Of a stretch of 59,676 nucleotides of DNA, positions 39,021-49,830 are shown in pieces; within the stretch, counting starts at the first letter, position 1; each line of letters opens with the position of its first letter. Below the pieces are notes generated by a model, which saw only the letters and a program-made list of their open reading frames with translations, did no database searches and was not told where the DNA came from. The DNA comes from an uncultured Clostridia bacterium (GTDB taxonomy: Bacteria > Bacillota > Clostridia > Oscillospirales > CAG-272): positions 1 through 59,676 of the forward strand of contig CANQYV010000003.1 of the NCBI GenBank assembly GCA_947628165.1, written 5' to 3'. A program made the position numbers and the translations under genes.

Positions 39021-39049
39021 TTTTCACGGAGTCGTTATTGTGGTATAAT
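39021..39049 (+). promoter_or_regulatory. Sigma-A promoter of the oxidoreductase operon
   Basis: TTTTCA-17 nt-TATAAT with TG extension (TGGTATAAT). Confidence 0.65.
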
Positions 39050-45345: not shown

Positions 45346-47364
45346 TTATTCAAAAAGTCCCGTTGTGTTGCCGTCGAAGAGGTAGTTGTAGGCGAGCATC
45401 GAATACTTGCGGAGCGGCTCCTCGCCTGCCGCCTCGTCCGCGTCGTGCAGCTTTCCGTCCTTGTCCGTAAACGAGTTCGCCGTCAGCGTCGGGTAGCTTT
45501 GGCGAAGCTCCGAGAGGAATTTCTGCGCGTCCGTCAGCTCGACGTTTGCGACACGGCACAAAAGCGTCGAAAGATAGTTTGCGCTTATGTCCGATATCTC
45601 CTCTTCCCTTATGTCATAGTTCGCCCAGATGAAAAACGGCACCTCGTAATATTTTTCCCTGTCGTTGATGTCGTTTAAGTCGAGTGTGACGCCCTCCTGC
45701 CTCAGTATCGGGGCGGCAAGACTGCTCGCGGGCTGGTGGTCGCCGAAAAGCATGAGTATCGTCGGCTCGTCAAACGATTTAAGGAACTTGACGAGAGACT
45801 CGACCGCCTCGTCCGTCGCGCGCAGGAGCGACAGATACTGCGAAAGACTGAAATTGCTCTCCTGACCGTCGACGATTATCCTCTGCCCATAGAAATTGTT
45901 GTGTCTCGTCCCGTAGCCGCCGTGGTTCTGCATCGTTACGTTGAAAACGAACATCGGCGTGCCGGGCTCTTTTTCCATGAGCTTGCGCTCGATGAAATTG
46001 AATACCGAAATGTCCGAAACATAAGAGCGCAGCGTCGTCCTCCCCGGGATGTCGGAGCGGAAATACATCTCCTCGAACCCGAAGTGCTTGTATACCTCGT
46101 TTCGCTCCCATCCGTTCGCAAGATACGGGTGCACCGCGAGCGTTTTATACCCCGCATTTGCAAGCTGTGAGGCGAGCGTCGGCACGTCGCGCTCAACATA
46201 CTGCTGATAAGGGATGCTCCCCGGCGGCAGGAAAGCCATCGACAACCCCGTCAGAAACTCGTATTCCGTGTTCGCGGTATTTCCGCCGAGCACCGAAACG
46301 TGCAGATGTCCCTTGACGGTGTCCTCCGACAGGCTCCTGATGAACGGGATGTAGTCCTCGTTCGTCTCAAAATCCGTGAGGACGGAAAGGTCCGAAAACG
46401 CCTCGTTCATAACTACGATGATGTTCGGCTCACTGACGTCGGAATACGCCTCGCCCGCGGCGTCCTCCCCGTCTATATTTTTTATCTCCTCCGCGATATC
46501 GGCAAGCGCGCCGTCCGAATAACCGTCCGGCTTGTCGACCGAAACATAGCGGAGCGTCATCAAAAACGAAACGGTAAAGCCGTTTCTCTGATACACCTTG
46601 ACCGGTACGAACAGTGCGTCGAGCAGACCGAAATCGTCGACGGCGCGGTCGAGGCTCAGATAATATCCGTAACCGAAGAGCATAACGAGCGACACGGCGC
46701 ACGCCGAGAGGCGCACGGCGAGCTTCTTCAGCCCATCGACAGCGGTGCCGAAATAAAACCCGAGATAAATCAGGAAAAAGAGCGCCGTGAGCGACGCGGC
46801 AAAGGACGCCGAAACCGAAAAATCGTAGTTTCCGGCGACGGACGCCGCCACCCCCGCGCTCGCAATATCCCAGGGGAAAAGGGGCACAGAGCGGAATGCG
46901 AGCACATAGTGCTCCGCCGTGCCCGCGATCAGAGCGTATATGCAAGGGACTGCCGCGGCAAACGCCGTCCTGCGCGTGGCAAAGAACGATATTGCCGCTA
47001 TGATATAGAAAAAAATCAGATTCAGGAAAATGACCTGCCCCGCCATCGCAAACGGATTATTGCACATGGACTCGAGCAGAAACATCGCCGCCGCGGGGAA
47101 AATCACCGGCGGTATTGCCGACATCACCTTTGCCGCGGTATTTTCTCTCTTTCCGACATGAACGAAAAGCAGAGCCGTCATCGCCGCGGTCATAAGTACC
47201 GAGAGCAGCAGAAATACCCCTCTGCCTGCCTCCTCGATGCCGCCGAAAAAGGCGGCGGCAGTCACGGCGAGCGACAATGCTGCCGGCAGTATATAAGGCA
47301 GCTCGCGCAGCGTCGGCAGTCTCAAAACGCCTGTCCGAGCCTCGCTTTGAACTTCGTTATCCAT
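45346..47364 (-). CDS. LTA synthase/sulfatase-family membrane protein (paralog 2)
   Basis: Multi-TM N-terminus; NEAF, GGNTANTE (catalytic Thr), MQNHG, FGDHQP. Confidence 0.88.
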   Translation of the reverse strand: MDNEVQSEARTGVLRLPTLRELPYILPAALSLAVTAAAFFGGIEEAGRGVFLLLSVLMTAAMTALLFVHVGKRENTAAKVMSAIPPVIFPAAAMFLLESMCNNPFAMAGQVIFLNLIFFYIIAAISFFATRRTAFAAAVPCIYALIAGTAEHYVLAFRSVPLFPWDIASAGVAASVAGNYDFSVSASFAASLTALFFLIYLGFYFGTAVDGLKKLAVRLSACAVSLVMLFGYGYYLSLDRAVDDFGLLDALFVPVKVYQRNGFTVSFLMTLRYVSVDKPDGYSDGALADIAEEIKNIDGEDAAGEAYSDVSEPNIIVVMNEAFSDLSVLTDFETNEDYIPFIRSLSEDTVKGHLHVSVLGGNTANTEYEFLTGLSMAFLPPGSIPYQQYVERDVPTLASQLANAGYKTLAVHPYLANGWERNEVYKHFGFEEMYFRSDIPGRTTLRSYVSDISVFNFIERKLMEKEPGTPMFVFNVTMQNHGGYGTRHNNFYGQRIIVDGQESNFSLSQYLSLLRATDEAVESLVKFLKSFDEPTILMLFGDHQPASSLAAPILRQEGVTLDLNDINDREKYYEVPFFIWANYDIREEEISDISANYLSTLLCRVANVELTDAQKFLSELRQSYPTLTANSFTDKDGKLHDADEAAGEEPLRKYSMLAYNYLFDGNTTGLFE

Positions 47365-47392: not shown

Positions 47393-49411
47393 TCAATAAT
47401 CAAACGCGCCTGTCGTGTTGCCGTCGAACAGGAAATTGTATTCGAGCAGCGAGTATTTGTGCAGTAGCTCCGAGTCGTCAAGCTCGTCAAGCCCGTGCTG
47501 CCTGCCTTCGGCATCGAAGAATCCGTTTGCCGTTATGACCGGGTATTCCGTCATCATTGAGGCAAGGAAGCGCTGCGCGCGCGTCGGCTCGATATTCGCG
47601 ACGCGGCAAAGCAAGGTCGAGAGGTAATTTGCGCTTATCGCCGGTATCTCCTCTTCCCTTATGTCGTAGTTCGCCCAGATGAAGAACGGGACGATGTACG
47701 TCTGCTCCTTCTCCTCGGGTATCTCGTTGTTTATCGTCTTGCCCTTTTGGTTGAGCAGGTCCTGATAGACCCACTTGCTCGGCTGATGGTCTCCGAAGAA
47801 GATGACGAGCGTCGGCTCGCTGTACTGCTCAAGCGTCGTGAGAAGATATTTTACGGCGCTGTCTGTCTCCTTTATGAGCGACAGATACTGAGAGAGCTGC
47901 TGGCTGTTCTCGAGCCCCTCCGCCGTTATCGCCCTGTCGTTAAAGTTGGCATAATTCTTTGTATAGCCGCCGTGGTTCTGCATCGTCACGTTGAATACGA
48001 ACATCGGCTTGCCGGGCTCCTTGTCCTCGAACGTGCGGAGAATATAGCGGAAAACCGATATGTCGGAAACGTAACCGCGGACGAGAGACATCCCGCGCAG
48101 GTCGGGTCGGAAAAGTATATTGTCAAATCCGAACTGGGCGTAGACGTTGTTTCTGTTCCAGCCCGTCGCGCCGTATGGGTGTATCGACATCGTGCCGTAC
48201 CCGTTTGCCTCGAGCTGCGTCGCGAGGCTCGGTCTGTCTCTGTGTATGTACTGCTGATACGGCATGCTCCCCGTCGGCAGATACGCCATCGAAAGCCCCG
48301 TCAGAAACTCAAACTCCGTGTTCGCCGTGCTTCCGCCTATAACGGAGGTGTGCAGCCACCCCTTTACGGTATTTTCCGAAAGCGAGCGGATGAAAGGCAT
48401 ATAGTCCTCGTTCGTCTCGAAATCGAGCACGACGCTGAGGTCGGAGAACGCCTCGTCCATTATTGCAATGATGTTCGGGTTTTTGACGTCCGAATAAGGC
48501 TCGTAGGAGGGCTCTTCGTACCCGCCCGGCTCCGCCGCCTCGTTCGCGGCAGTCTTTGAATACCCGCTCGGCTTTTCAACGGAGAGATATTTCAGATTGG
48601 TCATAAACGCGACGGTGAATCCGTCCCTGCTGTAAAGCGTCGTCGGGGAGAAAAGGTAGGGATAAAGGCCAAAGTCGTCAAACACTCTGTCAAGGCTCAG
48701 ATAGTAACCGTATGAAAAGAACAGTACGAGAACCGCCGCGCAGCAGGAGAGCCTGACGTACAGCCTGCGCAGCCAGCCGAGCTCGACGCCCGTATAAAAG
48801 CCGATATATATGATGAGCAGAAGCGCCGTTACGGCGGCGGCAAGCGTCGGCGTTACTTCAAATTCATAATTGCCGACGACGGACGCCGCGATCCCTATGC
48901 TGCCGAAATCCCACGGGTAGAGCGGAACTGAGCGGAACAGCATGACGTAGTGCTCCGCTATCCCGAAAAAGAGCGCGAAAACCGCCGGAGCGAGCACAGC
49001 CGCCCACGTCCTGCGCGTCGCGAACAAAAATCCGAGCGCGAGAAGATAAAAGAAAATACAGTTGAGAAAAACGGCGGGCGCGCCCATGTCGGAGATGTTG
49101 TGCGACATCTTTTCGAGCAGGAGCATCGACGCCGCGGGCGACACCGCGACGGGTACGATTGCCGCCGCCTTATATTTTTTCGGATGAATGAACAAGAGCG
49201 CCGCCATAAGGACAATCATTATGGCGCAGGATATTATGCAAAATCTGTCTGACACGGCATTTTCCGGCGTGCTGCCCTCGCCTTTTTTCGAGCTCAGCAT
49301 AAGGCAAAACACCGCGCCCGACAGAACTGTCGGTATCAGATAAAAGAATTCACGTCCCACGGGGCGCCTGAAAATGCGCTCCTTTTTGGGCTCTATGCTC
49401 TGTGTTTCCAA
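47393..49411 (-). CDS. LTA synthase/sulfatase-family membrane protein (paralog 1)
   Basis: Same architecture; DEAF, GGSTANTE, MQNHG, FGDHQP; probable TTG start at 49411 after GGAGGTG. Confidence 0.88.
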   Translation of the reverse strand: METQSIEPKKERIFRRPVGREFFYLIPTVLSGAVFCLMLSSKKGEGSTPENAVSDRFCIISCAIMIVLMAALLFIHPKKYKAAAIVPVAVSPAASMLLLEKMSHNISDMGAPAVFLNCIFFYLLALGFLFATRRTWAAVLAPAVFALFFGIAEHYVMLFRSVPLYPWDFGSIGIAASVVGNYEFEVTPTLAAAVTALLLIIYIGFYTGVELGWLRRLYVRLSCCAAVLVLFFSYGYYLSLDRVFDDFGLYPYLFSPTTLYSRDGFTVAFMTNLKYLSVEKPSGYSKTAANEAAEPGGYEEPSYEPYSDVKNPNIIAIMDEAFSDLSVVLDFETNEDYMPFIRSLSENTVKGWLHTSVIGGSTANTEFEFLTGLSMAYLPTGSMPYQQYIHRDRPSLATQLEANGYGTMSIHPYGATGWNRNNVYAQFGFDNILFRPDLRGMSLVRGYVSDISVFRYILRTFEDKEPGKPMFVFNVTMQNHGGYTKNYANFNDRAITAEGLENSQQLSQYLSLIKETDSAVKYLLTTLEQYSEPTLVIFFGDHQPSKWVYQDLLNQKGKTINNEIPEEKEQTYIVPFFIWANYDIREEEIPAISANYLSTLLCRVANIEPTRAQRFLASMMTEYPVITANGFFDAEGRQHGLDELDDSELLHKYSLLEYNFLFDGNTTGAFDY

Positions 49412-49437
49412 AAGACCCGTCACCTCCGTTGTTCTTA

Positions 49438-49830
49438 ATTATACCACGAAGCAAAAACGCTTGCTCGCAAGAGCGTTTTTGCGAGGCCGTCAATGTCAAG
49501 CGAAGCTTTTGAAGATTTTGAAAGCAAGACTTGCGGAGCAAGGCTTGTTTTCAAAGTCGGCGAAGATATTATACCACGTCGCCGAGCGCGCGTAGCAGTG
49601 CGAGGCGGCGGCCGTCAATGATTGCAATGATGTCGGAAGGCAAAGCGGCAAAGCCGCGCATGGCTTCCGTAAACATCATGCAATCATTATACCACGAAGC
49701 AAAAACGCTTGCTCGCAAGAGCGTTTTTGCGAGGCCGTCAATATCGAGCCGGCGGCGCAGCCGCCGCAAAAGCGAAGCTCTTGAAGACTTGCTAAGTGAA
49801 ACTTTGCAAGTCTGCGAAGATATTATACCA
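49438..49830. repeat. Array of promoter-like boxes alternating with variable hairpins
   Basis: ATTATACCA at 49438, 49568, 49686, 49822; GGCCGTCAA three times; exact 57-nt direct repeat 49438-49494 / 49686-49742. Confidence 0.85.

Follow-up and report, generated by a model that had tools for sequence, protein, structure and literature searches.

The promoter region of an LtaS-like gene in the DNA analysed here (a continuous stretch of 59,676 nt, hereafter the window) contains 393 nt of non-coding sequence in which short constant boxes alternate with variable hairpins. The question raised by this locus is whether such a periodic array belongs to the gene or came from elsewhere. A preliminary description of the same DNA had proposed a REP/BIME-like mosaic, a non-autonomous element mobilised as single-stranded DNA (ssDNA), a structured non-coding RNA array or a supercoiling-dependent promoter stack for the LTA-synthase genes. 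We find that the 393-nt stretch consists of three units of a dispersed, non-coding insertion element located at the promoter of the LtaS-like gene. Taken as a whole, the array probably represents three independent copies of an element of ~120-136 nt, inserted head-to-tail and in one orientation at a host TGGTATAAT and moved by an enzyme acting in trans. The boxes are the insertion target and the junctions between copies, a point that the preliminary description did not contain.

The array at the LtaS-like promoter

Two short motifs give the array its period. ATTATACCA, which reads TGGTATAAT on the minus strand, starts at positions 49438, 49568, 49686 and 49822, with box-to-box periods of 130, 118 and 136 nt. 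Counting both forms, the window holds five matches to this box against 0.11 expected, and at least five were reached in 0 of 100 shuffles. The second motif, GGCCGTCAA (TTGACGGCC in gene orientation), is found at 49485-49493, 49610-49618 and 49733-49741, leaving gaps of 44, 39 and 44 nt between TTGACG and TATAAT. Units 1 and 3 have 64 nt in common (97% identity), the first 57 of which form an exact repeat (49438-49494 and 49686-49742), and the linker similarities inside the array were recovered as two repeat families (D2 and D3). The box positions, periods, gaps and 57-nt repeat reported in the preliminary description were all confirmed at their coordinates. The only other TGGTATAAT of the window, at 39041-39049 on the plus strand, is unoccupied and represents a potential landing site.

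Read in gene orientation, the array follows the order host flank, TGGTATAAT / P-TTGACGGCC-Q-TGGTATAAT / R-TTGACGGCC-Q2-TGGTATAAT / P2-TTGACGGCC-Q-TGGTATAAT / taagaacaacGGAGG. The generic unit in this orientation is a folded domain X followed by ATTGAC(G/C), a hairpin Y and TGGTATAAT. All parts of the array are given here on the minus strand. The host's own extended -10 box TGGTATAAT (49822-49830) is the insertion target and forms the gene-distal boundary. Unit 1, of type P-Q (49686-49821, 136 nt), scores 103 bits with our covariance model R1 and comprises P with three hairpins (49742-49821), TTGACGGCC (49733-49741), Q (49695-49732) and an element-borne TGGTATAAT (49686-49694). Unit 2, of type R-Q2 (49568-49685, 118 nt), comprises R, a long branched hairpin (49619-49685), TTGACGGCC (49610-49618), Q2 (49577-49609) and its TGGTATAAT (49568-49576); other R-Q2 copies are found in the genome of the window (G000) and in that of a sister species (G010). 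Unit 3, of type P2-Q (49438-49567, 130 nt, R1 84.8 bits), comprises P2 with a 21-bp hairpin and a mini-hairpin (49494-49567), TTGACGGCC (49485-49493), Q (49447-49484) and an element-borne TGGTATAAT (49438-49446) that is now the gene-proximal -10 box.

The whole array folded as RNA stands out from shuffled sequences with z = -7.95, and each unit folded with DNA parameters reaches z = -4.2 to -6.2. A locally evolved stack of duplicated promoters, or a mis-assembled repeat, could in principle produce such a locus, and the exact 57-nt repeat is of the kind that k = 31 unitigs cannot phase, so that the order of the three units comes from the original assembly alone. Public unitigs (k = 31) from the source samples nevertheless cover all unique array junctions in three runs, and independent assemblies from rabbit, human and ruminant samples show this architecture at hundreds of loci, which makes either origin extremely improbable.

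Downstream of the array, the native leader (49409-49437, minus strand) is identical in G010 apart from one base. It contains a Shine-Dalgarno GGAGG at 49423-49427, 10 nt from box 1, in agreement with the ribosome-binding site first noted near this box, and a probable TTG start at 49409-49411 in frame with the GTG at 49421-49423 of the open reading frame list. The gene itself (47393-49411, to 49423 in that list, minus strand) encodes a membrane-anchored sulfatase-family, LtaS-like protein (Pfam PF00884, E = 1e-41) and is a passenger of the promoter, outside the element. Its divergent neighbour is a MatE transporter gene. The window carries two LtaS-like paralogues in tandem on the minus strand (45346-47364 and 47393-49423), ~49% identical over the first 300 residues compared, and the array is found only at the promoter of the upstream one.

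Occupied and empty promoters in gut Clostridia

The LtaS-like proteins of G010 and G000 are 94% identical. At the corresponding promoter of G010 (locus L028) only one TGGTATAAT separates the shared upstream flank '...tttgaaaaagcaaatta' from 'taagaacaacggaggtga', and there is no insert. The 384 extra, box-bounded nucleotides of G000 would accordingly be either an insertion in G000 or a precise loss from G010. An S-type unit is joined to the same upstream flank of the LtaS-like promoter in another rabbit sample, and the LtaS-like promoter of a further genome (G006) has yet another unit type; an empty-site contig was not found in four rabbit runs. Other promoters vary likewise: the C67 promoter holds P-Q in G000 and R-Q2 in G010, and extra S-type units are present in G010 at the C16 promoter. 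Copy number and hairpin content do therefore vary between related genomes, which the preliminary description had proposed to look for.

The origin of each box can be read at contig C23 of G000. There the host box, cTGTATAAT, has been kept upstream of the two inserted units, each of which ends in TGGTATAAT; hence the gene-side box belongs to the element and the upstream box to the host. To judge from these junctions, the exchange point would lie somewhere within the shared TATAAT, which hides the exact cut. Because each copy brings its own gene-side TGGTATAAT, a box is found at each joint and the gene continues to adjoin a -10 box; and because each new copy offers a new target, the arrays are explained.

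Some loci look like older states. Upstream of an rlmB-like gene in G010 (L050, contig C31), successive -10 boxes are separated by only 4-6 nt (TGATATAAT aatg TGATATAAT aaatag TTATAAT); the neighbouring S unit has lost an internal part, and the boxes look like the remnants of deleted units. In G000, partial X modules consisting of the first hairpin only directly follow TGGTATAAT at C20:9671-9719, C67:6024-6077 and C125 after 2058 and run into the native leader, as old truncated units fixed as 5' leaders.

Searching related genomes for the units, as had been suggested, uncovered dispersed homologs. About 11 promoters are occupied in G000, always in one orientation and before unrelated genes, which include ispD, pgk, trmB, an rlmB-like gene, a histidine kinase and a dehydratase activator. 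P-Q copies at C1:54132, C1:56725, C23 and C27 of this genome show 86-95% identity, and R-Q2 copies are found at C23 of G000 and at three G010 loci, one of which is the promoter with P-Q in G000:C67. Modules re-assort into P-Q, P-Q2, R-Q2 and S, with P, P2, R and S combining with Q, Q2 and S-Y. Beyond the two species, a 21-nt pattern from Q matched at least 117 stretches in gut Clostridia metagenome-assembled genomes (MAGs) from rabbit, human and ruminants. At the level of the order, R1 identified the family in 16 of 151 genomes; at the level of the class it did so in 47 of 300, and these matches fall in 26 of 178 genera with 1-12 copies per genome.

A same-strand open reading frame starts no more than 400 nt from the array in 53 of the 58 arrays outside G000, at a median distance of 62 nt, and the 78 downstream proteins form no cluster larger than three. 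Together with the bare promoter of the sister species, the location of units before unrelated genes speaks against the promoter stack of LTA-synthase genes as the origin of the array. Sites with a single unit are the rule (105 sites, compared with 11 double, one triple and one of five), so the mixed three-unit array of the window is at the upper end of the range. One genome (G296) has three identical copies at three unrelated promoters, and the family has therefore been active recently. Phage, plasmid and IMG/VR collections gave no real match, the single IMG/VR match being a chance 21-mer inside a gene.

Several further repeats were seen along the way. At L056, near 810-830, the loop of a Q hairpin contains a nested insert of ~45 nt that is itself a hairpin (ccgggggtccccacaaaagctcgcttttgtgggg...). 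G000 also has four GC-rich tandem arrays (C50:16164-16786, C19:6446-6852, C2:112789-113250 and C65:11087-11568; periods of ~119, 140, 113 and 223 nt) that are unrelated in sequence to the element, two at contig ends and two after tRNA-like sequence. A further dispersed repeat of ~280-300 nt is present in four copies at 87-92% identity (C1:82844-83145, C28:9143-9424, C48:7909-8190 and C37:14409-14662).

The choice of target was assessed from the boxes themselves. Across arrays, the leftmost (host) box begins with TGG in 64 cases, TGT in 11, TGC in two and TGA in one, compared with 22, 17, 15 and 89, respectively, for the unoccupied TGNTATAAT sites of G000 (p = 3e-23). Since TGG dominates the host boxes, the target is a specific 8-9-mer that the element itself carries and not any promoter; it is specifically TGGTATAAT rather than the commoner TGATATAAT.

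The two ends of the arrays differ in their upkeep. A perfect TATAAT is found in the upstream box of 82 of 91 arrays and in the gene-side box of 60 of 98 (p = 4e-6). The stronger decay on the gene side suggests that the upstream promoter keeps working, and we lean towards the view that the upstream host -10 box remains the functional promoter, with the units read through as a structured leader. The element-borne box would then be a spare extended -10 promoter, dispensable and able to decay, and two conserved C.A mismatches would weaken hairpin Y on the sense strand. The TTGAC-to--10 spacers, 44, 39 and 44 nt in the window, reach 60 nt or more in other unit types; spacers of 39-60 nt rule out a canonical sigma-A promoter, which has a 16-18-nt spacer. 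From its sequence, the TG-extended -10 box could still have promoter activity by itself. Extrusion of hairpin Y as a means of restoring a 17-nt spacer was considered and rejected, the residual spacers being ~12 nt for Q and 5 nt for S.

The fold and the strand that carries it

Unit types that are otherwise unrelated (P/four-way-junction-Q, R-Q2, S and others) all contain ATTGAC(G/C) and TGGTATAAT as constant motifs, and the only demand on the two domains between these motifs is that they fold. The most frequent length of X is 69 nt, and 69 of 72 distinct X sequences form a four-way junction in which a stem closes three hairpins. In an alignment of 66 units, 89.4% of cells pair. Changes on both sides of a pair occupy 266 cells compared with 75.5 in shuffles, of which 0 of 500 reached the observed value; sliding the partners by one to three columns in the same alignment left 57-86 such cells. 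Compensatory change is seen in 26 of the 37 pairs. The covariation sought by the preliminary description on aligned units is thus present, and for Y of type Q the sequence itself is conserved across the class.

The strand on which this fold is best formed is the one antisense to the promoter, that is, the plus strand of the window. Loops of the C-GNA-G type, such as d(GCGAAGC), are classical hyper-stable mini-hairpins of DNA and are not distinguished in this way in RNA. We counted 87 GNA triloops on the antisense strand against four on the sense strand (p = 2e-21), and 65 G.T pairs against 35. Y contains two T.G wobbles, preserved in 58 of 66 and 54 of 66 units, whose sense-strand equivalents are C.A mismatches. 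When the two strands of each module are compared, the antisense strand gives the more stable fold for 86 of 87 Y and 65 of 86 X; for the units of the window, folded with DNA parameters, the plus strand is the more stable in two of three. Moreover, the -10 box is followed within 1-3 nt by the closing stem of X, and transcription usually starts ~7 nt downstream of such a box, so a transcript from this box could not form the stem. Because loops, wobbles and stability favour the antisense strand and the promoter transcript lacks the closing stem of X, we infer that the predicted structure is a feature of single-stranded DNA.

The units could instead be functional RNA genes, namely tandem small RNAs each with a promoter and a terminator, or a structured 5' UTR regulating LtaS-like genes. 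A consensus extended -10 box does precede each unit, hairpin Y ends in a T-run and was flagged as terminator-like, and the covariation of the structure is strong. The optimisation of the structure on the opposite strand and the position of the closing stem outside the transcript speak against an RNA product, as do the unrelated downstream genes and the differing presence of units between sister species. Rfam gave no match either: in the window the best hit was c-di-GMP-II at 22 bits, far from its gathering score of 53.5 bits, and a scan of the window and 14 loci against Rfam 15 found no family in 90 kb with typical units and nothing at E <= 1. We consider an RNA function very unlikely, and the structured non-coding RNA array of the preliminary description is not upheld. 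On the folded plus strand, each unit presents a tRNA-sized four-way junction followed 7-8 nt later by CCA, the complement of TGG; ARAGORN calls no tRNA there, and the resemblance is probably a coincidence.

Movement of the element and its relation to known systems

How a non-coding element of this kind could move is suggested by its fold. We give about even chances to a mechanism, based on the predicted structures, in which the mobile form is one folded DNA strand, the promoter antisense and plus strand of the window, and an enzyme acting in trans cuts and joins it at ATTATA/TATAAT. On the plus strand, the stably folded Y and X would bring together three conserved single-stranded motifs, ATTATACCA, GCCGTCAAT and ATTATA, and the enzyme would cut and join within or beside ATTATA/TATAAT. 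The data fit a trans enzyme that recognises folded ssDNA and the 9-nt box. Candidates may include an undetected HUH or relaxase-type protein, a recombinase acting on the folded strand or a universal host factor.

Single-strand cut-and-paste by a Y1 HUH transposase or a domesticated RAYT, as for the palindrome-associated elements of the IS200/IS605 type (PATEs) or for REP/BIME, would share many of these properties. The hairpins carry a strand-specific ssDNA signature, insertion takes place beside a fixed short sequence with no classical inverted ends, and head-to-tail arrays are present. In addition, the antisense strand reads as a hairpin followed by ...GTCAA, which resembles TCAA, the right-end cleavage site of IS608. 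The enzyme is what such movement lacks. Among 61 relatives and 15 further carriers, Y1_Tnp (PF01797) showed no association with the element: it is present in ~9 of ~30 carriers and 17 of 45 non-carriers, no more frequently in carriers. It is absent from G000, G010, G015, G005, G006, G009, G016, G031, G040, G070, G103 and G072, a list that includes a genome with 12 copies (G070) and one that is 100% complete (G040); MAGs often come without insertion sequences and plasmids, and the absence of a gene from them is weak evidence. No Y1 gene is flanked by units. By GC skew, a rough proxy of orientation, the sense strand is G-rich at 37 loci and not at 21, and at 6 against 5 within G000. We see no replication-strand bias, which weakens a model based on ssDNA at the replication fork. 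Mobilisation by a Y1 enzyme is, on this evidence, improbable.

Searches for other enzymes gave a similar picture. For GIY-YIG (PF01541), compared in 15 carriers and 15 non-carriers, uvrC is the sole match in most carriers. The small GIY-YIG form (cd10448-type, ~95 aa) is absent in G000, G010, G015, G005, G016, G006, G009, G031, G070, G072 and G040, whose PF01541 frames are all of uvrC size (~615-690 aa). Phage_integrase (PF00589) showed no type visibly common to all carriers among 22 genomes; an Xer-like recombinase is encoded at least once in each of these genomes, and several carriers possess additional integrases. The two additional ones of G000 resemble ordinary island integrases, and one has a radical-SAM peptide cluster as its neighbour. 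Clustering the genes beside ~100 arrays revealed no recurring nuclease or recombinase, and the largest "family" was the translated element. A search for a coding parent, as Y/Q modules with no X nearby, found only decayed boxes, and self-BLAST of G000 found no multicopy transposase gene. The searches by enzyme family covered Y1_Tnp, GIY-YIG and Phage_integrase. Of the partners proposed in the preliminary description, HUH/RAYT shows no association, GIY-YIG is only uvrC in most carriers and tyrosine recombinases have no shared type, from which the enzyme appears to be neither a Y1 HUH transposase/RAYT nor an Ssn-type GIY-YIG nuclease.

Two observations concern the Xer-like genes. Several genomes of the window's genus (G002, G003, G017 and G018) have one PF00589 match and may use a single Xer rather than a XerC/XerD pair. 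At two loci of different genomes, L092 and L104, the element is directly upstream of an Xer-like tyrosine-recombinase gene, which at two of 78 downstream genes is probably chance.

The presence of recombinases also bears on the possibility of an integrative module without its own integrase (CIME, IMEX or attC-like). For strand exchange within the TGGTATAAT core common to element and target, it would rely on a tyrosine or serine recombinase, acting either on double-stranded DNA or on a folded single strand that recombines with a duplex target. A core of 7-9 nt is identical between the two, and the preferred targets are those that match the element's own box, TGG being far more frequent than TGA. 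Units accrete in tandem with a core at every joint, there is no replication-strand bias, and Xer-like recombinases and additional integrases are present as described above. Integron attC sites and cassette arrays offer a parallel, with a folded bottom strand, a structure conserved while the sequence is free, a core at each joint and a fixed orientation. The parallel breaks down in the core itself: TTGACGGCC and TGGTATAAT are not complementary, unlike R''/R', and are unpaired in the folds, so that the box stays single-stranded and is not rebuilt to a duplex as in attC or the attP of CTX phage. The element, moreover, has neither cassette genes nor attI. Target promoters share only the 9-nt box and hence offer no recombinase-binding arms, and no recombinase type is visibly common to all carriers. 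Such a module is unlikely.

Returning to the transfer of a folded strand, a more specific form of it would make this a new kind of bacterial mobile DNA, in which the folded strand, bearing template-strand images of the -10 and -35 boxes, is inserted where the -10 region of a TGGTATAAT promoter is transiently melted. It would be handled by an enzyme universal to the host or of an undescribed type and independent of the replication fork, and the element would persist by rebuilding the promoter. We regard this form as doubtful.

Among known systems, the family works most like REP/BIME and the PATEs derived from IS200/IS605, but the cognate Y1 enzyme of these systems is absent from most carriers. 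Like REP, BIME and REPIN sequences, the units are short, non-coding repeats of imperfect palindromes, dispersed between genes in mosaics of a few module types, and REPs are thought to be handled as single-stranded DNA. They differ in having no co-occurring RAYT/Y1 gene in most carriers and none beside the units, a low copy number (1-12 per genome), a location 5' of genes at the -10 box instead of at operon ends, an exact insertion point and no replication-strand bias. With IS200/IS605 and PATEs such as IS608, the family shares the lack of inverted terminal repeats and of a classical target duplication, insertion in one orientation beside a short specific sequence, and subterminal hairpins beside conserved single-stranded motifs. 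It differs in the absence of the transposase family from most carriers and of any coding parent found, in a 9-nt promoter box as target that the end of the element repeats, in the internal ATTGAC(G/C), which has no counterpart there, and in showing no lagging-strand-template orientation bias. From the preliminary description, the dispersed, modular, re-assorting repeat of the REP/BIME-like mosaic and the empty sites and ssDNA signature of a non-autonomous mobilised element thus stand, and the RAYT, Y1 HUH and stand-alone GIY-YIG partners are missing from most carriers.

Correia elements of Neisseria (CREE/NEMIS) and the BOX and RUP elements of pneumococcus are likewise small, non-coding and close to gene starts, can supply promoter boxes and, for BOX, are modular (boxA, boxB and boxC). 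They have terminal inverted repeats and TA-type duplications, or follow unknown rules, and we know of none that homes to a -10 hexamer and regenerates it. The ends of the present element, ATACGCAG... and ...GCTTCATGG, are not inverted copies as in classical MITEs mobilised by DDE transposases, and the flanking repeat is always the same sequence, unlike the free-sequence target-site duplication of such MITEs. CRISPR arrays consist of identical 24-48-nt repeats and unique spacers of similar length; here the variable parts are drawn from a small set of recurring families and the arrays are located at promoters, which bears out the initial statement that the array matches no CRISPR.

Ssn GIY-YIG single-strand nucleases cut NTS/SRM hairpin repeats (PMC11893778). 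These repeats resemble the element in being oriented, in placing a conserved 5' motif (CGTCAT in NTS, GCCGTCAAT on the plus strand of the element) before a hairpin with a G-M-A loop, and in an action as ssDNA, which for the element is predicted. The SRM motif, HGTCWY directly before a hairpin of 20-50 nt, has Y as its sixth base where the plus strand of the element, CGTCAA(T), has A, and the folded domain is here a four-way junction. NTS are 28 nt long with no promoter insertion known, Ssn is a nuclease with no shown joining activity, and most carriers lack a small stand-alone GIY-YIG gene. Mobile promoters, near-identical promoter-bearing segments upstream of unrelated genes (promoter reuse, PMC3575422), and the PeSL promoter/stem-loop cassettes of T4-type phages resemble the family in this distribution. 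They are defined by similarity alone or shuffled by homologous recombination, whereas the element described here is a defined unit whose ends are exact, whose sites also occur empty and whose fold is conserved.

Homing to the -10 box and rebuilding it sets the family apart from all of these systems. To our knowledge, no small non-coding mobile element of bacteria chooses and restores a -10 hexamer. The element is not described in Rfam or the searchable literature, and a promoter-targeting element of this kind, together with the enzyme that moves it, seems undescribed. The covariance model R1 is ready for annotating the family. If our explanation is true, it accounts for many of the contig breaks and "odd promoter repeats" seen in MAGs of Clostridia, and points to a DNA cutting and joining activity, neither Y1 HUH nor Ssn, that recognises a 9-nt site and folded ssDNA and would be of interest for ssDNA tools. 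Should entry into the melted promoter prove true, the element would be the first prokaryotic counterpart of eukaryotic promoter-targeting retrotransposons and a natural source of portable promoters. For the organisms themselves, the element would provide a route by which housekeeping genes in abundant gut Clostridia have their promoters and leaders rewritten, from one sister species to another and even among strains.
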